A DNA stretch of 64,000 nt from Candidatus Omnitrophota bacterium (GCA_040753015.1 JBFMHM010000002.1:36319-100318), one strand, 5' to 3'; numbered from the stretch's first letter, positions 28,592 to 51,778 are shown. Notes: generated from the letters alone by a model not told the origin. Made by a program: numbers and translations.

Positions 28592-30480
28592 AATGAATCA
28601 GGATGGCTACGCAACCATTCTTCAAGAAAAAGTAAATTCCATAATTTTGCTGAACTATCATGAGCTTCTGAATGCCTATCCACTATTGAGGCGATTTCTT
28701 TCATATTGAATAAAAACGGCAGGTATTCGGAATCTAACAGTTTCTTTCGAATATTATTTTTTAATTTATTGGCAAACCAAATACCAAGCGGTATTCCAAA
28801 GCCCATTTTAGGCCGCTCAATAAAATCTTTAGGGTAATAACACCCTGCAATCTTTTTTAAAATAAATTTCTTATGATATTCGATGCCATTATTTATTTTT
28901 TCTTCTTTTAGTTTAAATTCGACCGGCATATTAGCTGCTGTTTCCACCATCTCATGATCTAATAACGGAGCCCTTACCTCAATAGAATTTGCCATAGATG
29001 CAATATCGACTTTCGTCAAAATATCAAACGGTAAATAGGTCATCAAATCAAGATATTGAAGCCTGCTTATCATTGGCTGATGACCTATATTCATCAAGTT
29101 TCTGCGATTTTTAGCAATATCACAAACAACGTCTCTGTATTCTTTCTTAAAAAGATTTCTTCGTTCGCCTGGAGAAAAATGTTTTGCGGTATGACAATGT
29201 AATTCATAAGCATGATTAGTAATATTTCCGGGTACGATTAGACGCTTAAATCGAAAATAATAATAATACCCTAAACTACGCAATTTTTGCTTAAATGTAA
29301 AATTCGACTGATTATTAGAAAAATCACCCTGCAAAGTTCGCATAACATATTCGTAACTGTTATACCCGGCAAAATTTTCATCACCGCCATCTCCACTAAA
29401 AACCATCTTCACATGTTTAGCAGCCATACGAGAGACATAATAAGTAGGAATACTAGATGAATCTGCAAACGGTTGACCATAGTGCCTTACTAAAAGAGGC
29501 AAGAGTCCAAATGAATCCACTTCTACAATTTCGGTATGATGTTCTGTGCGATTTATTTGAGAAGCTGTTTTTGCATAATTTAATTCTGAAAAATCACTTT
29601 CATTAAAGCCGATGCTAAATGTTTTTACTGGTTGTTCAAGTATATCCGCCATATATCCAGTGATTAAACTAGAATCAATCCCACCGCTTAAGAATGCGCC
29701 AAAAGGAACATCACTAACCAACCGTAGTTTTACTGATTCTCTTAACTTACAATCAAGCTTGTGCTCCCAATCTTCAATTGACAGAGAACAATCTTCTGTA
29801 AAATGAAGCTTCCAATATCTTTTCTTAATCATATTTCCTGTTAATAAATCAATTTCTAATAAATGTGCCGGCTCAAGAGAATATACCTCTTTATAGATTG
29901 TCCGTGGAGCATGAATATACTGCCAAGACAGATAATCATCTAAAGCATCAAAATCAACCTTAAAATCCCCGATAGTTTTATAAAGAGGCTCTAATTCGCT
30001 TGAAAAAAATAACGAGTCGTTTCTGATTGTATAAAACAGAGGTTTTTTACCTAATCTATCCCTAGCGATAATAACTTTTTGTTTTTTAAAATCTACTGCG
30101 ACAAAAGCAAACATCCCACGGAAATGCTTTAAACAATTATTGCCCCACTCTAAGTATGCATTAAGCACAACCTCTGTATCTGAACTAGTATTAAAAACAT
30201 ACCCAGTTTTTTTTAATTCTTCTTTTATAACTTGAAAATTATATATTTCACCATTGTAAGAAATTAAGCCAACCTTAGCATAATCCTGCATTGGTTGATG
30301 GCCACTTTCGAGATCAATAATGGATAGCCTAGTATGCCCAAAGCACACAGGACCGATGCTCTCTATACCGAAATCATCTGGACCGCGATGTTTAAGTAGC
30401 CCTATCCCATTTTTTACGATACCAACTGCTTTATTAGCCAGTTCTCGATTAAGACTTATTGCTCCGAAAATTCCACACAT
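28588..30480 (-). CDS. Asparagine synthetase B-like amidotransferase, paralog 3
   Basis: MCGIFGAIS N-terminus, AFLSGGIDSS PP-loop. Confidence 0.85.
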   Translation of the reverse strand: MCGIFGAISLNRELANKAVGIVKNGIGLLKHRGPDDFGIESIGPVCFGHTRLSIIDLESGHQPMQDYAKVGLISYNGEIYNFQVIKEELKKTGYVFNTSSDTEVVLNAYLEWGNNCLKHFRGMFAFVAVDFKKQKVIIARDRLGKKPLFYTIRNDSLFFSSELEPLYKTIGDFKVDFDALDDYLSWQYIHAPRTIYKEVYSLEPAHLLEIDLLTGNMIKKRYWKLHFTEDCSLSIEDWEHKLDCKLRESVKLRLVSDVPFGAFLSGGIDSSLITGYMADILEQPVKTFSIGFNESDFSELNYAKTASQINRTEHHTEIVEVDSFGLLPLLVRHYGQPFADSSSIPTYYVSRMAAKHVKMVFSGDGGDENFAGYNSYEYVMRTLQGDFSNNQSNFTFKQKLRSLGYYYYFRFKRLIVPGNITNHAYELHCHTAKHFSPGERRNLFKKEYRDVVCDIAKNRRNLMNIGHQPMISRLQYLDLMTYLPFDILTKVDIASMANSIEVRAPLLDHEMVETAANMPVEFKLKEEKINNGIEYHKKFILKKIAGCYYPKDFIERPKMGFGIPLGIWFANKLKNNIRKKLLDSEYLPFLFNMKEIASIVDRHSEAHDSSAKLWNLLFLEEWLRSHPDSL

Positions 30481-30495
30481 TATTAGTTAAACTCC

Positions 30496-31443
30496 TTATA
30501 TTTTCTTACGAGCAATTACATGGTGATTAGGGTGATCGGGTAATGTTCGTTTAATATCTTCAAACCCTGCATTTATAAGCCAAGAAACTATCTCATCCCA
30601 CCTATAGAGATCGTTTATTTCTGGAGAAATAGCATCAAAATAACCATGAATATTATCTTTACCATATTTTTCTTCAATCCGCTCTATTTTCTCAGAAAAC
30701 GGCAAGTTTTTTATTCTACACCGCATATCGTGCATCTCGTGATAGTATAAAAAATCTTCTATGTTTGTCGGCCTAGGTTCCCCATAAAGCATTAAAAATA
30801 GATACCCGCCTGGTTTTACGCATTTAACAAGATTCTGAAATCCTTTATATGTATTTCCAGTATGATGCAATACACCAAAACACCAAACAAGATCAAAATC
30901 ATCCGAAAAACTAAGTTCTTCTAAAATATTTTTTTTAATAACTGTAAAATTGCCACCAAATTCTCTAACTACTTCTTTTGTTCTTGCAACACCGTTATCT
31001 GAAATATCAAAAGAAACACAACTTGCAACATTCAATTTCCCAAAACCATATGTCCAACGCCCCTGACCGCATCCGGCATCCATCACTCGCTTACCATTAA
31101 ACCATTCGGTAGGTAGATGTGTATTTATACAAACAGTTTCGGTAACTTTTTCCTTCCAGTTTTCACTACTAAGCATTGCCGCGCCTTCTGGTAAATGTTT
31201 CCATTGAAAATCAAAGCTATCTTTTGTCTGTTGGGGTAATATAAATTTATCCATGTCATCTGCTATCAAATACCGAATTAAACTCTTTAATGCATAAGAT
31301 TCATCTAACAAGAAGGAAATTTTTGCTTCTAAAAATCTTATCCGCTCCTCTTGAGAATATTGCTCTGCCGTAAAAGTAGAAATTTCATATTGGGTATTAA
31401 CCTTTTTAGGAAATAACTTTTTAATCGTATTTAACATAAACAC
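30496..31443 (-). CDS. Class I SAM-dependent methyltransferase (paralog of 26434-27444)
   Basis: VMDAGCGQGRWTYGF motif. Paralogous C-terminal half. Confidence 0.7.
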   Translation of the reverse strand: MFMLNTIKKLFPKKVNTQYEISTFTAEQYSQEERIRFLEAKISFLLDESYALKSLIRYLIADDMDKFILPQQTKDSFDFQWKHLPEGAAMLSSENWKEKVTETVCINTHLPTEWFNGKRVMDAGCGQGRWTYGFGKLNVASCVSFDISDNGVARTKEVVREFGGNFTVIKKNILEELSFSDDFDLVWCFGVLHHTGNTYKGFQNLVKCVKPGGYLFLMLYGEPRPTNIEDFLYYHEMHDMRCRIKNLPFSEKIERIEEKYGKDNIHGYFDAISPEINDLYRWDEIVSWLINAGFEDIKRTLPDHPNHHVIARKKI

Positions 31444-31452: not shown

Positions 31453-32772
31453 TTACTTTAACACTTCTTCTAAATAATTATTAAATCTATTAACCATTTT
31501 TTCTATAGAAAATTCTTTTAGCCGTTCTTGGGCATTCTTACCTATTCTTTGCCGCTCATCCGGCCTATCAATAAGATACGCTAGTTTATCTGTTAATTGT
31601 TCAACAGAACCAACATCAATATATATAGCCTCATGATCATCTCTTGCAACATCAAGTGCACCTGTGCGATTTGTTGAAACACAAGGCAACCCGCTAGCCA
31701 TCGCTTCCATCATTGAATTTGGCATACCTTCAAAATCCGATGCCATTACAAATATATCCGAAGCAGACAAATATTGATTTACTTCGGAAATCCGACCCAG
31801 TATCAAAAATTTTGTTAGGTTATTAGTATTAATATAATTTTCAACTATCTGTTGAGTATGACCATCTCCTCCTAATAAACAATATATTTTCTTATTAGGA
31901 TATTTTTCAAGCAATCTATGATATGCCCTCGCTAGTATCATTTGGCCTTTTTCTTTTGAAAATCGACCAATATTAATAATTACAATGGCATCATCTGAAA
32001 TGCCTAATTGATTACGAATTCTATTACGTTTTAAGAATTTCTCTTCCTGAGTAAAAAATGGAATATCTATGCCGTTTGGACAAACACATATCATATCTTT
32101 TTTAATATTAAGCCACTTTGAATAATCGTCTTGAAGAATGCTACTATTCACCACAATACCATTTAAATACGGCATCATTCTATTGTGTGCTCTTTTAATC
32201 GTAGAGCCTATAGTTGTCCAGCCATAAGAAGGATTAAAAGTACGAATACAAAAAATAATTTTTGGAATCCTTGCTATCGATGCAGCTACAAAAGATAACA
32301 TTGCCACTTCATGCCCCCATCCTATGACGACATCTGGACGCTCTGCTCTAAAATCACAGACAAGTTTATATATCTCAATCATTTGAAGAGAACGGAATGA
32401 AGATAATAACGTATATTCACCCAACTTTCTGCTAAATATATTCCCCTTTACATATCTATCTCTATCTAAATACATATCTTTACGGAACAGATAATTTGAT
32501 TCTGGAAAGATTTCTATAGCATCATGATAAAAAAAATTAGAGTTGTTATTTGTGCATAAATTAATAATTTGACGCTGGGTGCCTCCGACATCAAAACTAC
32601 ATGTTACATGAAGAATTTTTTTTCTATTACCGAATACCTGTCTAGGTTTACGTAATCTTCGTATTATGTAAGCATTAATACAGAAAAAGCCAAAAGACCA
32701 ATTGCAAATACACGCTAAAATCTTTTTTACGAAATCTACTAAAGATTTATCTAATAATCGTTTTGCAGTCAT
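31453..32772 (-). CDS. GT4-family glycosyltransferase (GT-B, retaining)
   Basis: C-terminal SASDIFVMASDFEGMPNSMMEAMASGLPCVST is the canonical GT4 E-x7-E region. Confidence 0.8.
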   Translation of the reverse strand: MTAKRLLDKSLVDFVKKILACICNWSFGFFCINAYIIRRLRKPRQVFGNRKKILHVTCSFDVGGTQRQIINLCTNNNSNFFYHDAIEIFPESNYLFRKDMYLDRDRYVKGNIFSRKLGEYTLLSSFRSLQMIEIYKLVCDFRAERPDVVIGWGHEVAMLSFVAASIARIPKIIFCIRTFNPSYGWTTIGSTIKRAHNRMMPYLNGIVVNSSILQDDYSKWLNIKKDMICVCPNGIDIPFFTQEEKFLKRNRIRNQLGISDDAIVIINIGRFSKEKGQMILARAYHRLLEKYPNKKIYCLLGGDGHTQQIVENYINTNNLTKFLILGRISEVNQYLSASDIFVMASDFEGMPNSMMEAMASGLPCVSTNRTGALDVARDDHEAIYIDVGSVEQLTDKLAYLIDRPDERQRIGKNAQERLKEFSIEKMVNRFNNYLEEVLK

Positions 32773-32776: not shown

Positions 32777-34219
32777 TTAACAATCCTTTGATTCAGCTAA
32801 GGCTTTTCGATATACTGCATCATATGCCGGCCATAAGACTTCATGACTATGATAGCGTTTAATCCATTCGCGATGCTGATGGCCAAGATTTCGTAAACTA
32901 TCCGGTTTATTAACGCAAAATAATATGGCTTCAGCTATTTCGCCTTCCGAAAAACAACTAAAAATGGGAGGATTCTTCTCAAAATTAAAGTGTTTATCGG
33001 AAGAATAATAAGTAATAAGAGGTTTTGCGCAACTCATAGATTCAAGTGCAAAAGTTCCTAGCCCACCATGAGTAAATTGATCAATACACACATCAACAGC
33101 ATTAATATATTTTCGCAATGCAACTTTTGAAAGAACGCCTATTTTAGTAACTATACCATTAAGATCCAACTCTTCAATTAAATCTGACGATTGCTTTGTA
33201 TCCTGTCCATACCAAACAGTAAGAAAAATTGCGTTGTCTAATTTATTTTTAACTTTAGCAAGCGCTCGCCAAAATTTATCACTGCCTTTCCATTGCCAAT
33301 TTTGACGTGCTCCCAGTAAAAAAATAACTTTTCCCGGATATTCTGTTCTTAATTGTTTATACAAAAAATCATCTTGGCAAGGCGCATAAATATCAGTATC
33401 TATCATAAATGGTATTAAATCTATTTTTTTTCGCGGTATTCCTAGCGCATCCATATAATCCATCATTATATTCCCACCTATAATATGTCTTGTTGCTCTC
33501 CTAAATCCACGCGCCTGCATCCAACCAGACTCATTATCTTCAAAAGGCGTAATGAATAAATCGCCGCCAAAAGGAAAAGTAACATACGGCTTATTAGTAA
33601 ATGATGCTATTGCGATATGACTACCACTTGCATGTATAAGATCTACGGTTTTATATAATTTTAAAAGGTCAAGATGTGGCAATACGGTATAAGCCAAAAG
33701 ATAGGATAATTCATTGCCATAAATTATATCTACAGCAGCATCTTTTAAAATCTCCTGCATTCGACGGTATTCAAAACAATTGGAGATTTTATTCAAATAA
33801 TCTAAATCCCATCTAGCCAATTTTATGAAATCTGGCACATCCCAGGAAGGCAATGCCTTGATATTCTGGGGCATTTCGCTTGCCTTAAAATAGACCTCTT
33901 CCCATTGCGGAAAAGATGTAATGGCAACATCGGCAAAACCTGGGTCAAAGAAAAGCTTAGCATCAACTCCATTACGACGAGCAATTTTGCAAAAACAATA
34001 TGCATTATTCAGAAGATTCATGCTATACCCTAATGAGTAATCACCTACAGTAGACGTAATAAAAGAGCATGGATTAGACATTTTCTCTACGCGAAAACAT
34101 CGCTCATTTCGAAGCATAATCTTTCTTATCGCAGAAAATTGCTCTCCTATTCTTCTTTCTTCATCTTTAAATATGCGCTTAACCAAAAAATATACTAAGA
34201 CTTGAATTGTTTTTTTCAT
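32777..34219 (-). CDS. Glycosyltransferase, GT-B fold (GT4-like)
   Basis: C-terminal ...VDVCIDQFTHGGLGTFALESMSCAKPLI donor-binding-like region. 480 aa. Confidence 0.5.
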   Translation of the reverse strand: MKKTIQVLVYFLVKRIFKDEERRIGEQFSAIRKIMLRNERCFRVEKMSNPCSFITSTVGDYSLGYSMNLLNNAYCFCKIARRNGVDAKLFFDPGFADVAITSFPQWEEVYFKASEMPQNIKALPSWDVPDFIKLARWDLDYLNKISNCFEYRRMQEILKDAAVDIIYGNELSYLLAYTVLPHLDLLKLYKTVDLIHASGSHIAIASFTNKPYVTFPFGGDLFITPFEDNESGWMQARGFRRATRHIIGGNIMMDYMDALGIPRKKIDLIPFMIDTDIYAPCQDDFLYKQLRTEYPGKVIFLLGARQNWQWKGSDKFWRALAKVKNKLDNAIFLTVWYGQDTKQSSDLIEELDLNGIVTKIGVLSKVALRKYINAVDVCIDQFTHGGLGTFALESMSCAKPLITYYSSDKHFNFEKNPPIFSCFSEGEIAEAILFCVNKPDSLRNLGHQHREWIKRYHSHEVLWPAYDAVYRKALAESKDC

Positions 34220-35370
34220 ATCTTATAGTTACATAAAGCAGTTTTAAAAGTATTTGTGATATATCTAAGTTCTCGCTCTTTTATCTCGTAATAAATAGGT
34301 AAAGAAATTGTCATATCTTCTCCTAATATAGCATTAGGAAAATATGCTAAGTTAAAATTGTAGCGTTTTTTATATACATCGAGTCGCGGAATGGCATGTG
34401 TACCAGGCCTTGTCCAAACACCTTTATTGGCCAAATAAGTCATAATACTATTCCTATAATTTTTATTCTTAATTTTCAACCTCACAACATACGATTGATA
34501 AGTATGGCTTGCTTTATCTGACACATAAGGAAGTTCTAATTCATCAATATCTCTTAAGAAAAAATTATAACAGTCACCTATATATTTTCTTTTCTCTAGT
34601 AGCTTATTGAGCTTTAATAATTGTGCTATACCTACTGCACCTTGAATATCAGAAAGCCTAAGATTATAACCAATATTTGATATCGCACTCATCTCATATG
34701 GATAATTCATCACTCTTGGGCCGGGTTCAGGGCCTCGCGTACCATGATTTCTTAGGCTATTAATAATATCTGCGTAACAACGATTGTTAGTTGTTACCAT
34801 GCCACCTTCACCAGTAGTAACGATCTTACGCGGATGAAAAGAAAAACATCCAATATCCCCAATTCCGCCAACTGGTTTTCCGTTATATTTACAACCTATA
34901 GCACAAGCAGCATCCTCAATTATTTTTAAATTATACTTTTTTGCAATAGCAATAATTTTATCCATCTCAACGCTAAGACCAAAAAGATGAACTACAATAA
35001 TTGCTTTAGTTTTAGTAGTAATCGCCTTTTCGATTTCGTTGATATCAATATTATAAGTTCGAATATCAATATCTACGAATTTCACAGTTGCGCCAACATA
35101 TTCAACGCAATTTGCAGTAGAAACCCAAGTAAAAGCCGGAACGATAACTTCATCTCCTGGCTTTAATCCTAGCGCTAGACAAGCTAAATGCAATGCTGAA
35201 GTACAAGAATTAATCGCTAAAGAATATTTGACTTCGTGTAATTCAGAAAAACGCCTTTCAAACTCCGCCACCATCGGCCCTTGAGTAACCCAACCACTTT
35301 TAAGACATTTTGAAATAAATCTTATCTCTTCATTATCAAAATATGGTCGTGCTAAAGGAATCTTTTTCAT
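34216..35370 (-). CDS. DegT/DnrJ/EryC1-family PLP-dependent sugar aminotransferase, second copy
   Basis: MKKIPLARPYFDNEEIRFISKCLKSGWVTQGPMVAEFERRFSELHEVKYSLAINSCTSALHLA...GDEVIVPAFTWVSTAN. Confidence 0.85.
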   Translation of the reverse strand: MKKIPLARPYFDNEEIRFISKCLKSGWVTQGPMVAEFERRFSELHEVKYSLAINSCTSALHLACLALGLKPGDEVIVPAFTWVSTANCVEYVGATVKFVDIDIRTYNIDINEIEKAITTKTKAIIVVHLFGLSVEMDKIIAIAKKYNLKIIEDAACAIGCKYNGKPVGGIGDIGCFSFHPRKIVTTGEGGMVTTNNRCYADIINSLRNHGTRGPEPGPRVMNYPYEMSAISNIGYNLRLSDIQGAVGIAQLLKLNKLLEKRKYIGDCYNFFLRDIDELELPYVSDKASHTYQSYVVRLKIKNKNYRNSIMTYLANKGVWTRPGTHAIPRLDVYKKRYNFNLAYFPNAILGEDMTISLPIYYEIKERELRYITNTFKTALCNYKI

Positions 35371-35448: not shown

Positions 35449-36237
35449 TTAAACCTTTTTAAGCGCATAAAATAAATTATAACTATATTGATCAAAACTA
35501 TTATCATTTAATAGCCTTGATACGTTCATAGCGAAACTATTAAATCTTGAATCATGCTTCGGAGATTTTGGAAAAATGGTTAAGGGATAAACAAGCCTCG
35601 AAAGTAACAAATAAAAACCATAATTTTTTATTTCTATAATCCTAAAATATTTTTCTATAAAAGATTTCATTTTTTCTTGATAAAAATTTCTATTATAATT
35701 TACTACTTTAATTTGCGACAAGCCCAAGGTTACCCTTAATCTATTAAGCCTGTTAAGCTCATCTTGAAACCCTTCGCTAAGTAATAGCAAGCCACCTTTT
35801 TTGAGAATGCTATGAATTTGCCTTAAAGCTTTACATTGCATTTCCCAAGAAGGCAAATTGATTAAACATCGCTGTGATATAACGCAATCGAATTTCAATG
35901 AATCTTTAAAAATATTATTTAGATTTGTTACTGAAGAAACAATAAAACTAATATTTTTTATATTATTTGATTGGGCTCTTCTTCTTGCGATTTTAATTAA
36001 ATTGTAAGAATAATCTAATCCAAAAATATGCTTAACTTTTTTAGCATAATTAATTGTGTGAGCCGCATCACCGCATCCTAACTCCAGAACATTAAAATTT
36101 TTTTTAAGATACTTCATAATATTGTCCATTTCTAACTTTGCAAGAAACGGATCTCTAGAAGTAGGAGTTGTTGATTTTAAAAAAGAAAATTTTTCCCCTT
36201 TATTTTCCCAAAATCTTTTTATATCTATTAATTTCAT
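35449..36237 (-). CDS. Class I SAM-dependent methyltransferase (candidate chain-terminating methyltransferase; immediately downstream of wzm-wzt)
   Basis: LELGCGDAAHTINYA...GLDYS SAM-binding motifs. Confidence 0.65.
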   Translation of the reverse strand: MKLIDIKRFWENKGEKFSFLKSTTPTSRDPFLAKLEMDNIMKYLKKNFNVLELGCGDAAHTINYAKKVKHIFGLDYSYNLIKIARRRAQSNNIKNISFIVSSVTNLNNIFKDSLKFDCVISQRCLINLPSWEMQCKALRQIHSILKKGGLLLLSEGFQDELNRLNRLRVTLGLSQIKVVNYNRNFYQEKMKSFIEKYFRIIEIKNYGFYLLLSRLVYPLTIFPKSPKHDSRFNSFAMNVSRLLNDNSFDQYSYNLFYALKKV

Positions 36238-36253
36238 TTTATTTATATATAAA

Positions 36254-37555
36254 CTAAAGGCTAGAGATATGACTTATTTTAATAGGATGCTCAACAATAT
36301 AATTATACTGATATTTGCTACTTTTAATTTTAATACTATAAACTCTATCATGATAATCCAACCACCTGAATTCGCCATTTTTTTCCATCAAAATAAACGC
36401 TGATAATTTATATTCTCCTTGCCCTAACAATAAAGGAGAAAAAATAAATCTAAATTCTCCATTCTCAAATAAGGATTCTTGCCGCTGGCAACCATCGTCC
36501 ATGCTGTTTGGAGTAAAAACTAATAAACCATTACTTGTAAATATTCGACAAGCACCGTGCAGTTTCCAATCAAAATATTTATAGCCCTTATATTTCAAAG
36601 AGATCTCTATGTGCTCCCCGGATAATAATTCATACCGCTCTTTCCCTTTATTGTCGAAAATTTTAAATTCGGTAATAACAGCTTCTTTGCTGCCGTATTT
36701 AAAAAAATCTTGATTATCTTTTAAATCTAAATAACCTCCTTTTTCTCTTAATTCAATAAGATCGCGTGAACAGAAAGAATCATTGTTACCAACCGAGCTC
36801 CTTAAATAAGAATGGCTTTGTTCATTAATATAACGCTGATAGGCTTTAATTACCAAATCTGCAACGTCATTAGCTACGATCATGCCATCATGCAACCATA
36901 TTGCTTTGTTACAAAACATATTAATCATCTCTGTAGAATGACTGACAAATAAAACCGTTGTATCACTTTGACAAATCTGACGAATTTTCGCCAAACACTT
37001 ATTAACAAAAATTGCATCTCCCGCAGACAAGGCTTCATCTATTATTAGAATATCTGGCTCTTGATGAATAGCAAGACTAAAGCTCAACCTAGCTTGCATT
37101 CCTAATGAATATGTTTTGAAGGAATTATCTATATATTTATAAAGACCGCTAAATTCAATTATCTCATCCATCTTTTTATCTATTTCGTCCTTACTCATAC
37201 CTAAACACATTCCACCCATATAAATATTTTCGCGCCCGGAATGCTCGGGATGAAAACCTGTACCTAATTCTAAGATGGCAGATACTTTACCATTTATGGC
37301 TACTTCGCCACTTGTCTTATCAAGCGTACCAGCTAGAATTCTTAATAAAGTGCTCTTGCCTGCGCCATTTCGTCCAATAACACCTATAACTTCTCCGCGT
37401 TTTAATTCAAAATTTATATCACTTAGCGCCCAAAATTCTTGATGATGCCGCTTTCCAGTTAAAATTTCCCAAACCATATCTGATGGTTTTTTGTACATTT
37501 TAAATGCCTTAGAAAGATTGGACGCCTTAATTGCAATATCTGATTTATCGTTCAT
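36254..37555 (-). CDS. wzt: ABC transporter ATP-binding protein, Wzt/TagH type, with ~200-aa C-terminal extension (candidate glycan-terminus-binding domain)
   Basis: Walker A GVIGRNGAGKST, signature YSLGMQARLSFS, Walker B ILIIDEALSAGD. Start set at internal ATG 37553-37555, which forms an ATGA overlap with the wzm stop. Residues ~260-433 form an extra non-ABC domain. Confidence 0.8.
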   Translation of the reverse strand: MNDKSDIAIKASNLSKAFKMYKKPSDMVWEILTGKRHHQEFWALSDINFELKRGEVIGVIGRNGAGKSTLLRILAGTLDKTSGEVAINGKVSAILELGTGFHPEHSGRENIYMGGMCLGMSKDEIDKKMDEIIEFSGLYKYIDNSFKTYSLGMQARLSFSLAIHQEPDILIIDEALSAGDAIFVNKCLAKIRQICQSDTTVLFVSHSTEMINMFCNKAIWLHDGMIVANDVADLVIKAYQRYINEQSHSYLRSSVGNNDSFCSRDLIELREKGGYLDLKDNQDFFKYGSKEAVITEFKIFDNKGKERYELLSGEHIEISLKYKGYKYFDWKLHGACRIFTSNGLLVFTPNSMDDGCQRQESLFENGEFRFIFSPLLLGQGEYKLSAFILMEKNGEFRWLDYHDRVYSIKIKSSKYQYNYIVEHPIKISHISSL

Positions 37556-38388
37556 AATACATCCCCAAAAGAAACCTTTAATTTTCGAAACATTCGATAC
37601 CCTAGGCAAAATATAGTTAAACTTATTACAATAAATGTTACCCACGCCTGATAATGCTCAAATCTACCAAAATAAAACACATCTTGATAGCACCAAACCA
37701 TATAACTAAATGGATTTAAATATACTACTGGCCGAAAAATATTTGGCACCATTTCTGGAAGATAAAATATAGGCATGGCATACATACCAACAACGCAAAA
37801 TACCTGAACAAAATCTTTAATATCACGAAAATATACTCCTATTGATGATAGAATATAAGAAACACCAATCATCGCAAGTATCTGAAATAAGAAAAGCGCG
37901 GGAATCAAAATATACGTCCAAGGTAATAATCCGTTTTTTATTAAAACATATAAAATTAACATCGTGGTATAAATTATCTGTGTCAAAAATGCCGCAATTA
38001 CGCCTTTGACCGGCAAAATTTCAATAGGAAAAATAACTTGTTTAACTAAATTTGCATTACCAACAACTGCCGAAGAAGCCTTGTTCATAGACTCCTGAAA
38101 CGACATCCAAGGGATAAGTCCAGAAAGAATATAGGTTGTATAATCTAATGGCATCTCTATTGTGCCGCCAATCTTTATTTTAAATACAAAAGCAAAAACA
38201 AAAACATATATGCCCATCAAAACCATTGGATGACCGATAACCCAAAACAACCCAAGCACTTGCCCTGCATAACGGTCTTTAATTTCCCGCTTTGCCATCT
38301 CACAAGTAAGCTGACGATACCTAGTTAAAAGCGCGATAATCTCGCGGAATGCCTGAAAGTGATTTTTAAAATTAAACAGAGACTTCAT
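37552..38388 (-). CDS. wzm: ABC-2 type transporter permease, Wzm/TagG type
   Basis: 6-TM ABC-2 permease pattern with N-terminal FQAFREIIALLTRYRQLTCEMAKREIKDRYAGQVLGLFW. Start trimmed to Met28 of the long ORF (ATG 38386-38388) to avoid ~100-nt overlap with AsnB-4. Confidence 0.75.
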   Translation of the reverse strand: MKSLFNFKNHFQAFREIIALLTRYRQLTCEMAKREIKDRYAGQVLGLFWVIGHPMVLMGIYVFVFAFVFKIKIGGTIEMPLDYTTYILSGLIPWMSFQESMNKASSAVVGNANLVKQVIFPIEILPVKGVIAAFLTQIIYTTMLILYVLIKNGLLPWTYILIPALFLFQILAMIGVSYILSSIGVYFRDIKDFVQVFCVVGMYAMPIFYLPEMVPNIFRPVVYLNPFSYMVWCYQDVFYFGRFEHYQAWVTFIVISLTIFCLGYRMFRKLKVSFGDVL

Positions 38389-40312
38389 AACATTCTTTAT
38401 TAAAATTCGGTGTTGTAATCGTTTTTGTCTCATAGCTACCGCAAAGAAAAATCTTACACCACCACTCAAAATTCAACAATGACCAAATAAAAAGACGGCG
38501 GTTTTGTTTTCCTTGTAAATGATCATTAATTAAATTATTGGTTGTTTTGTAATCAAAAAAATTGTATATATTTGCTTTCTTGTCCATAAGCAGTTCTTTT
38601 ACATATTCAACGCTTTCTCCTTTAAACCAACTTGCATCCGGGCCACTAAAACCCTGTTTATATTGATTTGTAATACTGTCTCCACTATACTTCCTAAGGG
38701 ATTTCCGCAGAATAACTTTTCCATCGTTCATCTTCTCAAAATATTTTTCTTTCTTCACAAACTCATCTTCATCAATATCAAGAATACTATTTATATTTTT
38801 AAGTTTTAACTTTACTGGAACTTTTAAACCAAAATCTACCAAATTATTATCTAAAAATGGAACTCGCTCTTCGAGTCCTTGAGCCATGCTCAATTTATCG
38901 CTCAAAATTAATAACCCGTGTAAAAAAGTTTTTGCTTCAAAATACAATGAGTGATTTATGTAATCTTCTGGCTTTTGAGGAACTAGCTTATGACTATTAA
39001 AAACATTCTTAAAAATATCTTCTGTCCAAACACCGTTTACGTCTTGCCAAATTGGCGCAAATAAGCCCTGTAATGTTTTATTCGGAACAAGCCTCTGCCA
39101 ATATTTATAGTAACCCTGCGTATATTCATCGAAGCTTTTTGCTCGTAATGCTTTATAATATCTCCATGGGTACCCTGCAAAAAGTTCATCGCCACCACAT
39201 CCCGAAAGACAAACCTTAACAAATCGAGAAGCAAGCTTTGCTGCATAAAAATTAGGATAACACTGCCCAAGCCGTAAATCTTCTAAAGCCCAAACCAGAT
39301 TCGGAATACAGCGCTTCATATCACCCGACTTTAAAACCATCTCATAATGTTCGGTCTGGTATAGATAAGAAATGTGCTCTGCTTTTTCTCTCTCATCAAA
39401 AGATAATTCTAAACCAGACGCTGACGATAAATCAAAACCAATACAAAAAGTCTTAAAATCCTTAAGATGTTGAGATGCAATTGCAACTATTGAACCCGAA
39501 TCTATACCGCCGCTTAGATAAGAACCCACTTCTACATCACTGACTAATTGTCTCTTTACTGCCTGGTTAAATAATCTATCAACCTCTTCTAAATACTCAT
39601 TTTCCGATTTTATATTTTTTTCTTCTTCAAAATGAAAATCCCAATATTGCTTTTGTTCAGCTTGTATGCACTCCCTTATGTTAATTTTTAAAAAATTCCC
39701 CGGTGGTAAAATTTTTACGCCCTTAAATAATGTTTTATAAGTAAACGTATTTTGAAAAGTAAAATACTCCAACAGAACTTCATGATCTAATTCTCTTTTA
39801 AATTCCGGATGCTCAAAAAAAGCCTTTATTTCTGAAGCAAAAAGTAACACTTTTTCATTTTGCCAGTAATATAAAGGTTTTATCCCATATCGATCTCTTG
39901 CAAAAAATAATTTTCGCTCTATTTTATCCCAGACAGCAAAAGCAAACATACCATTAAAACGCTTAACACAATCTTCTTTCCACTGGGCATATGCATAAAG
40001 CACAACTTCAGAATCTGTGTTAGATTTAAAATAATACCCCAATTTTTCAAGTTCCTTTCTAATTTCCCGAAAATTATAGACCTCGCCATTATATGTAATA
40101 ACAAAACGCTTATCTTCTGTAGCCATCGGCTGGCGGCCTTTAACCGTTAAATCAATGATTGCAAGTCTACGATGTCCCAACCCAACATTCTCATCAATAT
40201 ACAACCCTTCACCGTCTGGCCCGCGATGACGAAGGGCGCTAGTCATTGTTTGCAATATCGAGTTGTATACTTGCTGCCCATTCTTATTAATAATCCCTAC
40301 GATTCCGCACAT
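38372..40312 (-). CDS. Asparagine synthetase B-like amidotransferase, paralog 4
   Basis: MCGIVGII N-terminus, YLSGGIDSGS PP-loop. Confidence 0.85.
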   Translation of the reverse strand: MCGIVGIINKNGQQVYNSILQTMTSALRHRGPDGEGLYIDENVGLGHRRLAIIDLTVKGRQPMATEDKRFVITYNGEVYNFREIRKELEKLGYYFKSNTDSEVVLYAYAQWKEDCVKRFNGMFAFAVWDKIERKLFFARDRYGIKPLYYWQNEKVLLFASEIKAFFEHPEFKRELDHEVLLEYFTFQNTFTYKTLFKGVKILPPGNFLKINIRECIQAEQKQYWDFHFEEEKNIKSENEYLEEVDRLFNQAVKRQLVSDVEVGSYLSGGIDSGSIVAIASQHLKDFKTFCIGFDLSSASGLELSFDEREKAEHISYLYQTEHYEMVLKSGDMKRCIPNLVWALEDLRLGQCYPNFYAAKLASRFVKVCLSGCGGDELFAGYPWRYYKALRAKSFDEYTQGYYKYWQRLVPNKTLQGLFAPIWQDVNGVWTEDIFKNVFNSHKLVPQKPEDYINHSLYFEAKTFLHGLLILSDKLSMAQGLEERVPFLDNNLVDFGLKVPVKLKLKNINSILDIDEDEFVKKEKYFEKMNDGKVILRKSLRKYSGDSITNQYKQGFSGPDASWFKGESVEYVKELLMDKKANIYNFFDYKTTNNLINDHLQGKQNRRLFIWSLLNFEWWCKIFLCGSYETKTITTPNFNKECYEVSV

Positions 40313-40313: not shown

Positions 40314-41147
40314 TTAATTAAAGGTGTAATGTAAAATATTATTGTTAACTTTTCTAAAAGACTCCCCGCGCGTATGCCCTAACCATTGATCACAAACTAA
40401 ACAAACCTCATCGGGATAATTATTACGAATCTCGCTTAGCCTACGCGAATTCCATATTTCAGAAATACTATAATTCGCTATATTTATATCTTTTTCGGTA
40501 TTCCATACATGATTACATCTTGAAACGCATCCATCAAATGCAATAACCAACGTATCGTGCAACTTCGGGCAAAAATTGCGATTAGAATCTAAAGTCTGCG
40601 AAGACCTGCCAAAAGCGCCATCAATACTATGTTCTTCATACAATCTAACACTATCAAAACCAGCTAAATCTTTTGATTGAATTAAATCATCATAAATATT
40701 TTTAATTGTTTCTTCGCCTTGGACAAATGAAACTTGGGTTATTGGAAAATTATCATCGTTTTTAAATAATAAAAACTTCTTGGCATTTTTATAACCTATA
40801 AGATTATGTACACTAAAAGTTATAAATTCAAAATGAGATAATATTGCTGCAATCCTCTCATTAAAAATAACGCCATTCGTAGAAAAATGCATTTTTAACC
40901 CTTTACTAAAAGCAAAATTAATAATTTCCGTAAAATAAGGATGCAATAACGATTCTCCGCGCCAAAAAGGAATGACTATGGAATTAGGCGAATTGTCATT
41001 AATATCTTCGATTATCTTCTCCCATAGGAAACGACTCATAAACCCCTTATTTTTATCAATATGATTTCGCGGACACATCGAGCAGTCTAGATTACAATCC
41101 AACGAAAGCTCAACAACAATTCTTTTAGGAAATTTACTAATTTTCAT
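40314..41147 (-). CDS. Radical SAM enzyme with C-terminal Cys-rich (SPASM/twitch-like) region
   Basis: CNLDCSMCPRNH cluster motif, GESLL SAM motif. C-terminal CPKLHD...CVSRCNHVW...CLVCDQW cysteines. Confidence 0.65.
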   Translation of the reverse strand: MKISKFPKRIVVELSLDCNLDCSMCPRNHIDKNKGFMSRFLWEKIIEDINDNSPNSIVIPFWRGESLLHPYFTEIINFAFSKGLKMHFSTNGVIFNERIAAILSHFEFITFSVHNLIGYKNAKKFLLFKNDDNFPITQVSFVQGEETIKNIYDDLIQSKDLAGFDSVRLYEEHSIDGAFGRSSQTLDSNRNFCPKLHDTLVIAFDGCVSRCNHVWNTEKDINIANYSISEIWNSRRLSEIRNNYPDEVCLVCDQWLGHTRGESFRKVNNNILHYTFN

Positions 41148-41479
41148 ACATTAACTACACCCGAATTCAATAACTCTAATTCTTTTTTTAATTCGAAATA
41201 CTCTTTTTCTTTTTTTTCTAAGAAATAACGAGCGAGTGTTATTTTTTTCTCAAAGCCGTTTTTGGTTAAAATATACCTCAGTTTGTTTAATTTTCCTTTA
41301 CGGCTAGTAAAATTTTTAATCTTTACCAGACCTCTCTGGGTAAGCGCTTTTAGTAAATAATTAGTTTTACCTAAAGATATATTTAGGTATTCGGATAGGT
41401 CTCTTTGGGTGAGATCTTGACTAGTAGAAAGGATCTTTAGAATCTTGAATACATCTTCTTGAAAATAATGTTCATCCAT
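41144..41479 (-). CDS. Small winged-helix transcriptional regulator, MarR-like (EPS-associated MarR-type)
   Basis: 111 aa. LTQRDLSEYLNISLGKTNYLLKALTQRGLVKI helix-turn-helix. Sits at the head of the glycan locus. Confidence 0.55.
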   Translation of the reverse strand: MDEHYFQEDVFKILKILSTSQDLTQRDLSEYLNISLGKTNYLLKALTQRGLVKIKNFTSRKGKLNKLRYILTKNGFEKKITLARYFLEKKEKEYFELKKELELLNSGVVNV

Positions 41480-41523: not shown

Positions 41524-43077
41524 TTATTTAGGTAAGCTAGTATAAATCTTACAGCAAGAGCTACAGATTGCCTTGCTTTTTTTATATTTTAACTTTGCAC
41601 CACACTCACACACCCAACCGATTTGTTTCGCAGGCACGCCAACTACAACCGCATAATCTGGCACATCTTTTTTCACTACTGCACCCGCGCCGATAAATGC
41701 ATACCGGCCAATCGTAACCCCACAAACTATAGTTGCATTTGCGCCTATGGATGCGCCTTTTTTTACTAATGTTGGTTTAAACTCATTTTTACGCTCAATA
41801 AATGCACGCGGGTTATAAACATTAGTGAAAACACATGAAGGCCCACAGAAAACATCGTCTTCTAAAGTAATCGATGAATAAACCGAAACATTATTTTGAA
41901 TCTTGCATCTATCCCCAATAATAACATCGGGGCCTATGCAAACATTTTGACCAATGATACATTTTTCGCCTATCTTAGAATTTTTTAATATATGTGAAAA
42001 ATGCCAAATCTTAGTCCCTTGACCTATCTCAACATTCTCATCGATATAACTTGATTCATGTATAAAAAAATCGGTTGGATTGTTAAGATTCGATAATCCT
42101 TGTTTTTTATTTAATAAACTATTTTCGGCTCTTTCCAGCACGCCTAATACAGAAAGGCCTTCTTTACCACAAGTAAGCGGGTTTTGCCTTGTTAAAACAC
42201 ACTTTAAAAAATGCTTCAATTCCTCTTGCAAAGGTTCTTTCTTTTCGATTTCAAGCGGGTAGTAATCTGCCTTTTGAGCAACAGGAATCTTTCCGCTTTG
42301 CCATTCTATCTTATGAGGATAAACTAATAATTTATTCTCGGATAAATCATCAAACACTGCCATAGCTTTTGAACCAACCACAATTAACTTTTGTTCTTTA
42401 AAAGGATGCAACCAACTCACAAAAATATGCGCCTTAATACCATTTTTAAATTCCATGCCTGTTAATGTAGTATCATAATGATTAGATGTAATATAATCAC
42501 CACCAAAAGCATAGACATTTAAAGGATTATCATTGACTAATGATAAGATAACCGAAATATCATGAGGCGCAAAACTCCATAAAATATTTTCTTCAATCCT
42601 CACCTTACCGATGTTTAATCTATTAGAATAAATATATTCAATTTTTCCTAAGTCACCATTTTTTATTAACTCCTTTAATTTAATAATTGCTGGATGATAA
42701 TGAAGGATATGGCCAACCATTAGAATTTTATTTTTTTCTTTTGCTAAACTAATTAATTCTTCACCTTGCCGATAATTTAAAGAAAGTGGTTTTTCTACAA
42801 AAACATCTTTATCTTCTTGAATAGCTTTTTTTGCAATACCATAATGGGTTTCGGCAGGACTAGATATAACTAAAGCTTTTATTGTTGTATCAGCTAATAA
42901 TTCATCAATATTTAAACAGTATTTTATCCCAGGAAATTCTTTTTTTCTTTCTTCTAAAACCGTTATACTTGAGTCGCATGCACTCGCTAAAACATCTAAT
43001 CCATAAAGATTTCTTAGGATATTCTTGCCCCAACCACCAAGGCCAACTAAACCAATAAATTTATCTTTAGTTTGCAT
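41524..43077 (-). CDS. Bifunctional fusion: Gfo/Idh/MocA-family NAD-dependent sugar oxidoreductase (WbpB-like) + left-handed beta-helix hexapeptide N-acetyltransferase (WbpD-like), with Cys-rich C-terminal tail
   Basis: N-terminal Rossmann [16 protein letters not shown] and the family EKP motif (VFVEKPLS). C-terminal tandem hexapeptide repeats ([13 protein letters not shown]...[25 protein letters not shown]...[28 protein letters not shown]). Tail [20 protein letters not shown]. Confidence 0.7.
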
Positions 43078-43079: not shown

Positions 43080-44639
43080 TTAAAACCTGTCGCTATAAAT
43101 CGTCATGTCTAAAAATGATTTAAGCCTTCTAGACCTTGTTGGATGACGAAGTTTTCTGAGCGCCTTTGCCTCGATTTGCCTGACGCGCTCCCTAGTAACT
43201 TTGAATATATTACCAACCTCCTCTAGCGTCCTAGGAGATCCGTCTTGTGTACCAAAACGAAACTCTAGTATTCTTCTTTCTCGCTCTGACAATGTTGCTA
43301 AAGCAACTTCGATCTCTTCCTTAAGCATTGATTTAACTGTTGTGTTTGCTGGAGAAATTGCTTTTTTATCTTCGATAAAATCACCGAAATGCGTATCACC
43401 TTTATCGCCAATCGGCGTCTGCAAAGAAATTGGCTCCTGGGCAATCTTTAGTATAGACTTAACTTTGCCTTGCGACATTCTTAACTCTTTTGCAATTTCT
43501 TCGGCACCCGGTTCCCTGCCATATTCTTGGACAAAAAGACGAGAAATCCTTGTAATCTTATTAATAGTTTCTGTCATATGCACAGGTATTCTAATAGTCC
43601 GTGCCTGATCTGCTATTGAACGAGTAATTGCCTGCCTAATCCACCATGTGGCATAAGTAGAAAATTTATATCCCCTTTTATATTCAAATTTCTCAACGGC
43701 GCGCATAAGGCCAATATTACCTTCTTGAATAAGATCGAGGAAAGAAAGGCCTCTATTGGTATATTTTTTTGCGATGCTCACAACAAGTCTTAAATTAGCT
43801 TCGACTAATTTCTTTTTTGCCCTATTAAAAAATGAGTATTTTACCCTAATTGAATGAAAAATTTGCTTTATCTTATCATAGGGCATTCCTAATTCTTTAA
43901 CTATAGAACGTTTTTTTTGTAATAATTTATTTTTTCCTATTGCCTTCTTTTTGCTTTTTCTAAAACTATCTAACTGTTTATCTATGCATTCAATTTCAAG
44001 AATTAACGCACGCATTTTATCCATTATCTTCTCAACAGCAGAAACAGTCAAATTAAAATCTATAAGAATTTGCAGCCATTTGTTTTCATCTTTAGTTTGC
44101 TTCAGTTTCTTTGTCAAATAGCTAACTTTTTTTATAAATTTTTCGTCTCTTAGGAAAATATCTTCTTTTATTAAATCTTCTAGCCCAGATTTTTTTTCTA
44201 AAATCTCCTCAAATAGCTTAATAATCTCTTTCTTAGCAAACTTTGTAACCAAGACTACTTGAAATAAGTTCTTCTCTCTTTCTTCAATTTTTTTTGCAAG
44301 ATCAATTTCTTCTTCTCTCGAGAGAAGATCAATAGAACCCATTTGCTTAAGATACATTTTTACAGGATCATCCATAGGGCTTACGCGCTCCTGAGCTATT
44401 GACTCAACATCTTCCTTGTTTAACTCCTGCGCTGCATCTTGAAGATCCAGAGTATCTTTTTTATCTTCTACAATTTCAATATCTTCACTACCCAGTAAAT
44501 CAAAAACTTCATCTATTTCTTGTACACTCGTAGCATCCTCGGGTAATATTTGATTTACTTCATCATAGGTCAAAAAACCTCTTTGCTTACCAAGCGCGAT
44601 TAATTTTTCAGTATTCTGCTTAATCGTTCCTTCTTTCAT
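43080..44639 (-). CDS. rpoD: RNA polymerase primary sigma factor (sigma-70 family, RpoD)
   Basis: Region 2 [54 protein letters not shown]. Region 4 [30 protein letters not shown]. Acidic region 1. Confidence 0.92.
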
Positions 44640-44651
44640 AATACTCCTTAT

Positions 44652-46448
44652 TTATTTTAAACAATTTTTAAACTCAACCAGCAGTTCCTTAAGCCTGTCT
44701 TGATCGTTTTTTCTCTGTGCAACCATGATTTGTTCTTGAATATTTTTTCGCTTCAATTTCAGATTTTGGTCCTTTATTCTTCTTATACAATCATCTAGTA
44801 ATCTATTCAAACTCGAACTATCCTTCCCGGTACTGGTAAAATCTAACTCGCCAGATAATGATGCTTGAGATAAAATATTGATATGTTCGCTGTCTTGAAA
44901 CTGGCTAATTAATCTAGAAATAGAAATCTCTTGGTTATTATTTAATAAATTAAATATCTCGCTGATTATATCCGCAATTCGCGGATCACTAAACTCATAT
45001 GGATTAATATTTTCCTTTAATCTATATAAAAAGTCAGATTCTTTAAGCGCTAATTTTAATAAAGTCATTTCTGCAGACAAAACATTATTTCTAAATTCAA
45101 ATATAGAGTTACCTTTATTAAAATCTCCGCTCGGCGTATTTTTAAACTTTTTAAATTCATCAAAAACTGCCTGTTCATCTATCCTTAACAATTCAGATAC
45201 TTTTTTCAAATAATCCGTCTTCAGCACTTCATTATCTATTTTCTTAATAGTAAGGAGTATTTCTTTTACTACTTCTGCCTTACCATTAGATGAATTTATA
45301 TCAAAACGCGCGGTTAAAAGTTTTAATTTATAATCAAAAAAACTGTTTGACCGATTCAATAATTCTTTTAATTTTTGTATACCGTATTGATGAATATATG
45401 AATCAGGATCAAAGCCTTTATCTAAAGCTACAATCTCTAAATTTATACCCTCTTCAATAAAAATATCAAAAGCGCGCAGCGCAGCCAACTCCCCAGCCTT
45501 ATCAGCATCAAATAATACCTTTACGTTATTCGTAAACCTTTTTATTAATCTGGCATGATCATTAGTCAATGCAGTTCCAAGCGTTGCAACCGTATTAAAT
45601 AGGCCTGCCTGATAAAGACTTATAAAATCAAAATTACCTTCTACAATTATAAGATAACCGTACTCTCTTATGTTATCTTTTGCCAAATTTAATCCATACA
45701 AAAGTTTTCCCTTTGAAAAAATTGGCGTATCTGGTGAATTAATATATTTAGGTAAAATGGCATCCTTAGCAACAACTGGATTAGAAGTAGGCAATACTCT
45801 TGCACTAAAAGCAACTGGCCTCGATTTTAAATCAAAGATCGGACAAACTATTCTATTCCTAAAACGATCATAATAACCACCGTTTTGACGCGGAACTATT
45901 AAACCACATTTCTCAATAAGAGATATCGGAATATCTTTAGATCTTAAAAAATCAATCAATCCTTGCCAAGAATCTTCGGCAAATCCTAGTTTAAACTTAT
46001 TTATTGTATCCTGGTTAATATTCCTTTTCTTAAGATAATCTCTGGCTCTAAGTGCATTATCCGACTTCAATAATAAATTATGATAATGAACAACGGCGGA
46101 TTCAATAACCTTGTATAATTTTGTAACTAAGCTTGTTTCTTTGTATTCCTCTCTCTGCGGCAAGCTTACTTGTGCTTTTTTTGCCAATATCTCTACAGAT
46201 TCTTGAAAACCAATGCGCTCATATTGCATTAAAAAATTAAACGCGTTGCCACCTGCACCACAACCAAAACAATGGTAAATTTGTTTTTCCTGGCTTACGA
46301 TAAAAGATGCCGTTTTTTCATTATGAAACGGACAGATAGCCTTAAAACTCCTGCCAATTTTCTTTAATGGAATATATGAAGAAATGACTTCCGTAATATC
46401 AATTCTAGATAAAATTTCATCGAGAGTTTCCTGGGAAAGACGCGGCAT
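44652..46448 (-). CDS. dnaG: DNA primase DnaG
   Basis: CHC2 zinc finger FKAICPFHNEKTASFIVSQEKQIYHCFGCGAGGNAFNF. TOPRIM region (EGNFDFISL...DAD). Classic dnaG-rpoD linkage. Confidence 0.9.
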   Translation of the reverse strand: MPRLSQETLDEILSRIDITEVISSYIPLKKIGRSFKAICPFHNEKTASFIVSQEKQIYHCFGCGAGGNAFNFLMQYERIGFQESVEILAKKAQVSLPQREEYKETSLVTKLYKVIESAVVHYHNLLLKSDNALRARDYLKKRNINQDTINKFKLGFAEDSWQGLIDFLRSKDIPISLIEKCGLIVPRQNGGYYDRFRNRIVCPIFDLKSRPVAFSARVLPTSNPVVAKDAILPKYINSPDTPIFSKGKLLYGLNLAKDNIREYGYLIIVEGNFDFISLYQAGLFNTVATLGTALTNDHARLIKRFTNNVKVLFDADKAGELAALRAFDIFIEEGINLEIVALDKGFDPDSYIHQYGIQKLKELLNRSNSFFDYKLKLLTARFDINSSNGKAEVVKEILLTIKKIDNEVLKTDYLKKVSELLRIDEQAVFDEFKKFKNTPSGDFNKGNSIFEFRNNVLSAEMTLLKLALKESDFLYRLKENINPYEFSDPRIADIISEIFNLLNNNQEISISRLISQFQDSEHINILSQASLSGELDFTSTGKDSSSLNRLLDDCIRRIKDQNLKLKRKNIQEQIMVAQRKNDQDRLKELLVEFKNCLK

Positions 46449-46450
46449 TA

Positions 46451-48642: not shown

Positions 48643-48658
48643 TTAATTTTAACCGAGC

Positions 48659-48797: not shown

Positions 48798-51778
<2,981 letters not shown>

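Follow-up and report, generated by a model that had tools for sequence, protein, structure and literature searches.

Introduction

Several ATP-binding cassette (ABC) exporters of the Wzm/Wzt type have been described in which the ATPase Wzt carries a C-terminal carbohydrate-binding module (CBM), and every Wzt CBM studied so far reads a cap at the non-reducing end of the glycan and thereby licenses export (PMC9445017, PMC11231755). In Aquifex aeolicus this cap is 3-O-methyl mannose or rhamnose (PMC9445017). The terminator WbdD of the E. coli and Klebsiella systems comprises about 470-570 amino acids (aa) in the solved constructs, in which a methyltransferase domain is joined by a coiled-coil ruler, a region that binds the membrane and, in O9a, a kinase domain (PMC3482155, PMC11231755). 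The wbm locus of Bordetella encodes the AsnB-type amidotransferases WbmC, WbmI and WbmZ, which are candidates for uronamide formation, and here the chain is capped by a triamino-galacturonamide sugar (PMC2615507). For Pseudomonas aeruginosa's common polysaccharide antigen (CPA), a PA5457/PA5459 double mutant makes no CPA, and overexpression shortens the chains mildly (PMC3560663). Here we analyse a stretch of 64,000 nucleotides from a metagenome-assembled genome (MAG) of Candidatus Omnitrophota (GCA_040753015.1, JBFMHM010000002.1:36319-100318; hereafter the window), in which wzm and wzt are followed directly by the gene for an S-adenosylmethionine (SAM) methyltransferase, MT1. The original prediction had read this triad as one capping-and-recognition unit, with MT1 making the cap that Wzt recognises. 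A cap-reading CBM is borne out by Pfam and by the modelled fold; MT1 as the capping enzyme does not agree with the gene contexts of its orthologues or with a syntenic locus, L137. We therefore favour, with moderate confidence, a CBM-dependent exporter beside which MT1 is an enzyme of a sugar cassette, most likely not a dedicated terminator, and the adjacency of wzt and MT1 looks derived from a rearrangement.

Results

The exporter and its carbohydrate-binding module

Open reading frames (ORFs) and Pfam matches confirm the predicted wzm (37552-38388, 278 aa), wzt (36254-37555, 433 aa) and MT1 (35449-36237, 262 aa), all on the minus strand. Wzm is an ABC-2 permease (ABC2_membrane, E 2.3e-12), and Wzt matches ABC_tran (E 3.8e-23) and Wzt_C. 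The ABC_tran match supports a nucleotide-binding domain (NBD) of Wzt at residues about 1-245 (36821-37555), which is followed by a linker of residues about 246-285 (36701-36820) and by the CBM, residues about 286-433 (36257-36700), recognised by Wzt_C, an AlphaFold model and Foldseek. The NBD aligns with A. aeolicus Wzt (8dku) over residues 9-276 at E 7.8e-68 and with TarH at E 1e-56, and the ATPase motifs are readable in the translation (Walker A GRNGAGKST, signature YSLGMQARL, Walker B ILIIDE). The extra C-terminus of about 200 aa that had been noted for Wzt is real; its placement at residues ~260-463 comes from the longest ORF of 463 aa, which starts at a GTG at 37645. Alignments to the Aquifex Wzt and to the Wzt proteins of the related loci L009 and L137 support the ATG at 37555, and the extension then measures about 190 aa, of which about 150 aa form the folded module. 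The genes are tightly joined: the stop of wzm and the start of wzt share 4 bp, a gap of 16 bp separates wzt from MT1, and wzm overlaps the preceding amidotransferase gene AsnB1 by 17 bp. Promoter-like and terminator-like sites are no more common than in shuffled sequence, and none above that level splits wzt from MT1. We show here, by family matches and structural modelling, that wzm and wzt encode a predicted O-polysaccharide-type ABC exporter with a CBM-bearing ATPase.

Wzt_C (PF14524) matches residues 287-414 of Wzt with E 4.4e-18 and 66.1 bits, against a gathering cut-off of 30.4. The AlphaFold model of the C-terminal domain, built on 28 sequences, has a mean predicted local distance difference test score (pLDDT) of 82.7 that exceeds 90 through the beta-sandwich. 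When this model was compared with the PDB by Foldseek, the 17 best matches were all Wzt CBMs (E 2.8e-10 to 1.6e-6). Among them are the serotype O12 module that binds a 3-deoxy-D-manno-octulosonic acid (Kdo) cap (5hno/5hnp, E 2.8e-10) and the A. aeolicus CBM, both free (6o14) and with bound 3-O-methyl-mannose (8dky), at E 1.7e-8 to 1.6e-6. The comparison with the O9a beta-sandwich, proposed earlier as a check of the fold, turned out positive, with the C-terminal domain of E. coli O9a Wzt (2r5o) matching at E 7.7e-9 and a template modelling (TM) score of 0.61-0.70. RhoGDI and NPC2, which come next among the fold matches, are immunoglobulin-like sandwiches of a generic kind, and their E-values are weaker by four orders of magnitude. 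In sequence the domain is divergent: among 1.84 billion representative proteins, HMMER found 37 relatives at E<=1e-3 and 4 at E<=1e-10. A word-indexed search with the domain returned one protein, and the alignment needed the exhaustive HMMER scan. A cap-recognising exporter is well supported, because the Wzt_C match lies above the cut-off and the top PDB matches are all Wzt CBMs. By analogy with the Wzt modules studied so far, the CBM would inspect the completed lipid-linked glycan for a specific cap at its non-reducing end ahead of export.

MT1 and its family

By Pfam (Methyltransf_31/25/11/23/12, with E-values as low as 7e-21), MT1 is a predicted class I SAM methyltransferase, and AlphaFold models it confidently as a single Rossmann-type domain with a pLDDT of 91.6. 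Searches returned 186 homologues, and the 119 listed, its own protein aside, are 45-55% identical over 91-100% of the length. Its own protein stands in NCBI as a 100% identical Candidatus Omnitrophota entry, encoded on a contig of 260 kb. The family is about 261 aa long; an alignment of 30 sequences has a mean column identity of 56% and 49 invariant columns, and conserved C-terminal motifs (SQRCLINL, TEGFQDEL, YNRNF, PKHDS) lie outside the SAM-binding fold. Nearest in sequence among PDB entries are phosphoethanolamine N-methyltransferases (E 1e-10) and assorted other enzymes, and NCBIfam gave no specific model. With WbdD, phmmer finds similarity at E about 2e-3 that is confined to about 68 residues (36-104) of the SAM-binding motif, and WbdD is absent from the 50 best Foldseek matches of MT1, all of which are generic class I methyltransferases. 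The fold neighbours include YcgJ, TleD, CmoM, the sugar O-methyltransferases RebM and AtmM, NodS and PMT; with about 1,500 class I methyltransferases at E<=1e-3, this fold search does not discriminate. Neither a kinase domain nor a coiled coil or membrane anchor was found in MT1 by Pfam, the AlphaFold model and a heptad heuristic, and Pfam detected no kinase domain in the whole surrounding cluster. The heuristic is home-made and crude, with GCN4 and tropomyosin detected as controls; among the 34 cluster proteins it flagged five short segments and not one long coiled coil. Whether MT1 clusters with glycan-capping or with small-molecule enzymes had been raised as a decisive point for its role. 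It does not group with known capping methyltransferases, and it does not join a defined small-molecule family either; by its homologues, it belongs to an uncharacterised family specific to glycan clusters.

The gene contexts of this family point to a common partnership. A metagenome scan with the MT1 family gave at least 4 true orthologues, and the context sample, drawn from many phyla, comprised 15 informative loci after duplicate contigs had been merged; its MT1 orthologues are 42-55% identical to MT1. An AsnB-type gene precedes the MT1 orthologue in 11 of the 15, directly in 10 and with one methyltransferase gene in between in L023. A PseC-like DegT aminotransferase, 38-54% identical to the window's DegT1, adjoins the AsnB and MT1 orthologues, and in most such loci the AsnB protein is a specific orthologue of AsnB1: in L003-L007 the AsnB before the MT1 orthologue is 53-62% identical to AsnB1 and 30-34% to the other three window paralogues. 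L004 and L137 additionally share with the window a GFO-hexapeptide enzyme (61-63%) and a radical SAM/SPASM enzyme (47-48%). The loci L003, L004, L006 and L007 encode Polysacc_synt or MurJ-type flippases and have no wzm/wzt within the fetched flanks. In none of the other informative loci does the MT1 orthologue lie next to wzt. The order in the window breaks the strict adjacency, in that wzm-wzt stands between AsnB1 and MT1, with DegT1 directly downstream of MT1. Because the AsnB/DegT linkage is found in Wzx-type and ABC-type loci alike, MT1 appears as part of a sugar-tailoring cassette that is independent of the export route. These contexts show, at the level of gene neighbourhood, that MT1 is a predicted member of the AsnB/DegT cassette, which is known from MAGs assigned to more than 10 phyla.

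The presumed oxidizing enzyme of the cassette varies. Beside the DegT1-type gene stands a radical SAM/SPASM enzyme in the window, L004, L137, L013 and L058, and an SDR (short-chain dehydrogenase/reductase) enzyme of the epimerase/dehydratase type in L003, L006, L007, L017, L018 and L024; the two never occur together at this place. The radical SAM enzyme may thus be an oxygen-independent stand-in for the SDR oxidation step, a replacement that we presume to be comparable to BtrN. WbmS-like and formyltransferase genes often accompany MT1-family loci, and L023 has them directly upstream of wzm-wzt, a pair whose Wzt_C match is weak. The L018-type soil locus has an arrangement of its own, with wzm followed by two tandem Wzt-like ATPases of 405 and 414 aa (9481-11939), whose C-terminal extensions are both unrecognised by Pfam as Wzt_C. 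Within the window, each of the four AsnB paralogues adjoins a methylating enzyme: AsnB4 with MT4 (429-3451), AsnB3 with a B12-binding radical SAM enzyme (15061-18473), AsnB2 with MT2 (28588-31443), and AsnB1 with MT1, with wzm-wzt in between (35449-40312). This pairing suggests a recurring two-step chemistry of amidation and methylation.

The Wzt clade and the syntenic locus L137

Among full-length Wzt homologues, those nearest to the window protein reach 56-58% identity; one of these, P0159, is encoded on the 19-kb contig L137. Together with L009/L010 and L011, L137 forms a clade of loci whose Wzt proteins are 52-58% and whose Wzm proteins are 52-67% identical to those of the window, the Wzm of L137 reaching 67% and that of L009 52%. 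The window CBM is 41-47% identical to the CBMs of this clade; clade members are 39-79% identical among themselves, at least 45% in 12 of 15 pairs. The NBD of the window is as close to the clade as the NBDs of its members are to one another.

L137 is syntenic with the window, sharing nine further genes in nearly the same order. It runs from GFO and Hexa (63%) through the radical SAM/SPASM enzyme (48%), AsnB1 (49%), Wzm (67%) and Wzt (58%) to a 237-aa methyltransferase (MT237), a second radical SAM/SPASM enzyme and a 546-aa protein, and continues with the glycosyltransferases GT4a (55%) and GT4b (48%), AsnB2 (69%), the MT1 orthologue (51%) and DegT1 (54%). In the window the order is GFO-Hexa, a winged-helix (wHTH) gene, radical SAM/SPASM, AsnB1, Wzm, Wzt, MT1, DegT1, GT4a, GT4b, MT2 and AsnB2. 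In L137 the MT1 orthologue, placed between AsnB2 and DegT1, is 8 kb away from wzt. MT237 is 51-56% identical to the methyltransferase directly after wzt in L009/L010 and L011; downstream of that enzyme's gene, the same loci encode a 534-552-aa protein to which the 546-aa protein is 34-50% identical. Since the L137 proteins match these counterparts, all three other clade loci have the same pair after wzt, an MT235/237 methyltransferase and a protein of 534-552 aa (L137:6768-10214; L009:4612-6976; L011:874-3300). MT235 is not homologous to MT1, and the window holds no homologue of MT235 or of the 534-552-aa protein. The latter has at best a weak WbmS-like Pfam match, in L011 only; PDB sequence searches gave only non-significant matches for the 546-aa protein (E>=0.026) and only generic methyltransferases for MT237. 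In addition, a methyltransferase of 267 aa follows the Wzt homologue P0124. As far as gene order can tell, the wzm-wzt-MT1 triad is not a conserved unit, and the ~235-aa methyltransferase together with the ~540-aa protein forms a candidate new terminator module, with both proteins being better candidates than MT1.

The surrounding glycan cluster

The minus strand holds almost all genes of the window, and the wzm-wzt-MT1 operon belongs to a glycan cluster of more than 43 kb, whose 34 ORFs stand close together without a break between 43077 and 429, as far as the left edge of the window. By Pfam, the cluster encodes besides Wzm and Wzt four each of AsnB-type amidotransferases, class I methyltransferases and B12-binding radical SAM enzymes, two each of radical SAM/SPASM enzymes and DegT aminotransferases, a fusion of GFO dehydrogenase and hexapeptide acetyltransferase, a carbamoyltransferase and an FAD oxidoreductase. 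Its glycosyltransferases are two GT4, three GT2 and one GT-C (PMT_2), and several membrane proteins match no Pfam family. The Pfam annotation detected no Wzx-type flippase among the cluster proteins, and WbmS-like and formyltransferase genes are absent from the window. The whole cluster has a GC content of 0.30-0.34. A recent horizontal insertion of wzm-wzt was considered and rejected, as the even GC gives it no compositional support and the AsnB1-wzm junction is common to L137.

The cassette genes and their neighbours all lie on the minus strand. The first gene of the cluster, just after rpoD, encodes a GFO/IDH/MocA dehydrogenase fused to a hexapeptide acetyltransferase (GFO-Hexa, 41524-43077). 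Its NCBIfam match, UDP-GlcNAc 3-dehydrogenase, has an E of 9e-48 and lies below the model cut-off; the fusion is probably WbpB/WbpD-like. The radical SAM/SPASM enzyme of the cassette (40314-41147, Radical_SAM and SPASM) and AsnB1 (38372-40312), a glutamine-dependent amidotransferase with Asn_synthase and GATase domains, precede wzm. Between the GFO-Hexa and radical SAM genes, within the operon, lies a 111-aa winged-helix ORF (MarR/HTH_24-like, 41144-41479) that is absent at the same position in L004 and L137. Downstream of MT1 follow DegT1 (34216-35370), a PseC-like sugar aminotransferase (DegT_DnrJ_EryC1, E 1.9e-109; PseC is the nearest NCBIfam model, with a score below cut-off), and, by Pfam, GT4a (32777-34219), GT4b (31453-32772), the methyltransferase MT2 (30496-31443), the amidotransferase AsnB2 (28588-30480) and a further methyltransferase, MT3 (26434-27444). 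The ORF at 27383-28591 has GT4-type similarity below significance (E 0.003-0.008) and is possibly a divergent glycosyltransferase of the GT-B type. Next to MT3, the ORF at 25178-26434 has weak GDSL/SGNH hydrolase similarity, likewise below significance (E 0.006), and might encode an O-acyl-modifying enzyme.

The remaining part of the cluster is rich in radical enzymes. B12-binding radical SAM genes lie at 7185-8624, 9496-10899, 15061-16527 and 21495-22913, the second SPASM radical SAM enzyme at 10905-11951, the carbamoyltransferase at 11971-13719 and the FAD oxidoreductase at 13730-15058, and this load of radical chemistry is unusually heavy for a polysaccharide locus. A GT2 (3467-4504), a DegT aminotransferase (4458-5579) and a PMT_2-family GT-C (5576-7198) stand side by side, a trio at 3467-7198 that we take to resemble ArnC/ArnB/ArnT, the set for attaching an aminosugar at the membrane's outer face. 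The methyltransferase MT4 (429-1535) has an N-terminal Trm112-like zinc-ribbon match below cut-off. Outside the cluster the window contains cvpA, a NIF3-like gene, dnaG and rpoD (43080-47927, Pfam), an rRNA operon (48652-53755), a 1,595-aa ORF with zero Pfam matches (56347-61134) and, adjoining the latter, an 893-aa protein with tetratricopeptide (TPR) repeats and a polysaccharide deacetylase domain (61243-63924).

Discussion

From the comparison with L137, the most economical interpretation is a loss of the clade's post-wzt module from the window, so that the MT1-DegT1 block now abuts wzt. In the model that we favour, a rearrangement would have removed the post-wzt methyltransferase and the ~540-aa protein and brought MT1 beside wzt, and the product of the cassette would probably be a methylated sugar of the amino or uronamide kind, made at the level of the nucleotide sugar. 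The starting precursor would be a UDP-N-acetylhexosamine or the corresponding uronic acid, UDP-HexNAc(A). GFO-Hexa may catalyze 3-oxidation and N-acetylation in a WbpB/WbpD-like manner, the radical SAM/SPASM enzyme or an SDR a second oxidation, and DegT1 the transamination. Amidation would fall to AsnB1, comparable to the Bordetella uronamide candidates WbmC, WbmI and WbmZ (PMC2615507), and methylation to MT1. Such a cassette would serve Wzx-dependent and ABC-dependent clusters alike.

Several points weigh against this reading. MT1 sits where wbdD does in the E. coli O8/O9a clusters (wzm-wzt-wbdD). In three or four of the closest relatives the gene immediately after wzt encodes a methyltransferase, so the slot may matter and MT1 could have taken over its role. 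Furthermore, the window lacks the MT235/546-aa pair and has an intact CBM, so something else must make the ligand. In three loci (L018 type, L023 and L137) wzm/wzt lie 3-8 kb from the MT1 orthologue. The sample is small, with only three other loci in the Wzt clade, and the enzymatic roles and substrates of all proteins discussed are predictions.

One alternative is that MT1 methylates the terminal sugar of the finished chain, stops elongation and makes the CBM epitope, acting like WbdD of E. coli O8, though with no ruler. Its place in the same operon, 16 bp after wzt, speaks for this, as do the genuine CBM, methyl caps being known CBM ligands (PMC9445017), the methyltransferase genes right after wzt in the closest relatives, and the loss of the clade's other methyltransferase, for which MT1 could substitute. 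However, orthologues of MT1 are tied to AsnB/DegT also in Wzx-type clusters without an ABC transporter, and in L137 the orthologue coexists with a post-wzt methyltransferase and lies 8 kb off wzt. The terminators of all characterised Klebsiella and E. coli systems bear a coiled-coil ruler (PMC11231755), and a coiled coil, a kinase domain and a membrane-binding region are all missing from MT1, which also shows no specific similarity to WbdD. We thus regard a terminating MT1 as rather unlikely. Still less likely is that another methyltransferase of the cluster is the terminator, the best candidates being MT2 (30496-31443) and MT3 (26434-27444). Both look paralogous, with a shared N-terminal amphipathic heptad-like helix and the motifs FDFQWK, VWCFGVLHHTG and GYFDAISP. 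The top of the five segments flagged by the heptad heuristic among the 34 cluster proteins is residues 35-72 of MT3, the MT2 sequence shows a similar N-terminal helix, and MT2 is placed where L137 has no gene, so that it could replace the lost MT237. Yet the MT3 helix, at about 35 residues, is far shorter than known rulers and its coiled-coil call comes from the home-made heuristic, MT2-like genes also occur within the cassette in the Wzx-type loci L003 and L007, and the PDB matches of MT2 and MT3 are generic; PDB sequence searches with these two and with MT4 gave generic methyltransferases only.

A different possibility is that the cap itself is a dedicated methylated amino-uronamide sugar from the cassette, added once at the non-reducing end by GT4a or GT4b and read by the CBM. 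MT1 would then shape the cap at the precursor level, on the same principle as in the Bordetella O antigen and in Klebsiella O12 with its Kdo cap. Such a purpose would fit the embedding of wzm-wzt in the cassette in both the window and L137. In Bordetella, Wzm/Wzt exports an O chain that bears a 2,3,4-triamino-galacturonamide derivative as its cap (PMC2615507), and the wbm loci combine genes for aminotransferase, asparagine synthase, methyltransferase and formyltransferase enzymes (PMC12243275). Frequent WbmS-like and formyltransferase genes in MT1-family loci, in L023 directly upstream of wzm-wzt, point the same way; the window, however, has neither, the same cassette occurs in Wzx-dependent clusters, where no cap exists, and the cap chemistry is deduced throughout, the likeness to Bordetella being one of gene content. 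Since the Bordetella cap demonstrates that such a cassette can make a cap, we keep this reading at a low probability. It is in the same measure possible, though unlikely, that the exporter is embedded in the cassette on purpose and that its unusually divergent CBM reads a chain-ending cassette sugar including the MT1 methyl group. If true, there would be in Omnitrophota, a candidate phylum that is little studied, a new cap chemistry that resembles the Bordetella one and adds a CBM checkpoint, and the cassette cap would have replaced the usual terminator pair of the clade, the MT235-family methyltransferase and the ~540-aa protein. Finally, the CBM could be a relic or bind an unmodified feature of the chain, with export itself ending elongation as in Klebsiella O2a. 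The missing MT235/546-aa pair, found with the clade's Wzt elsewhere, would agree with this, and the window CBM is somewhat more diverged from the clade, the NBD being as close as the clade's own. Against it, the module has its full length, clears the Pfam cut-off by a wide margin and gives a confident model, and known systems of cap-independent export have no such module at all (PMC9445017), making a relic very improbable.

Returning to the favoured reading of MT1 as a cassette enzyme, the analysis carries a caution on method. The rule that a methyltransferase gene beside wzt encodes the capping enzyme fails here once the contexts of the orthologues are compared. Because cap-dependent quality control is well described, another CBM-bearing exporter is unsurprising, even in Omnitrophota. 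Of more consequence are two uncharacterised gene sets that the comparison exposes and that are now testable, the SDR/radical SAM-DegT-AsnB-methyltransferase cassette and the pair of the ~235-aa methyltransferase and the ~540-aa protein.

Among known systems, A. aeolicus WzmWzt (7k2t, 8dku; carbohydrate-binding domain 6o14, 8dky) has the same layout of NBD, linker and C-terminal beta-sandwich and a Wzm-type permease as partner, although its CBM is only about 20% identical to that of the window and is left unaligned by phmmer. With the WbdD/Wzt-CBM system of E. coli O9a/O8 and Klebsiella O3/O5 the window shares the order wzm, wzt, methyltransferase and the 2r5o-like CBM fold; in contrast to WbdD, MT1 is a single domain of 262 aa without the kinase, ruler and membrane-binding parts. 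The wbm locus of Bordetella bronchiseptica/parapertussis, likened to the window by gene content, also depends on ABC-type export, and the window adds to such a set four B12-binding radical SAM enzymes and a carbamoyltransferase. PA5457 and PA5459 resemble MT1 in being small methyltransferases without ruler domains in an ABC-dependent pathway; unlike MT1 they lie apart from wzm-wzt, and a capping role for them is itself putative. The capping logic of the original prediction is the textbook model, and the exporter described here is a divergent addition to a well-known type.

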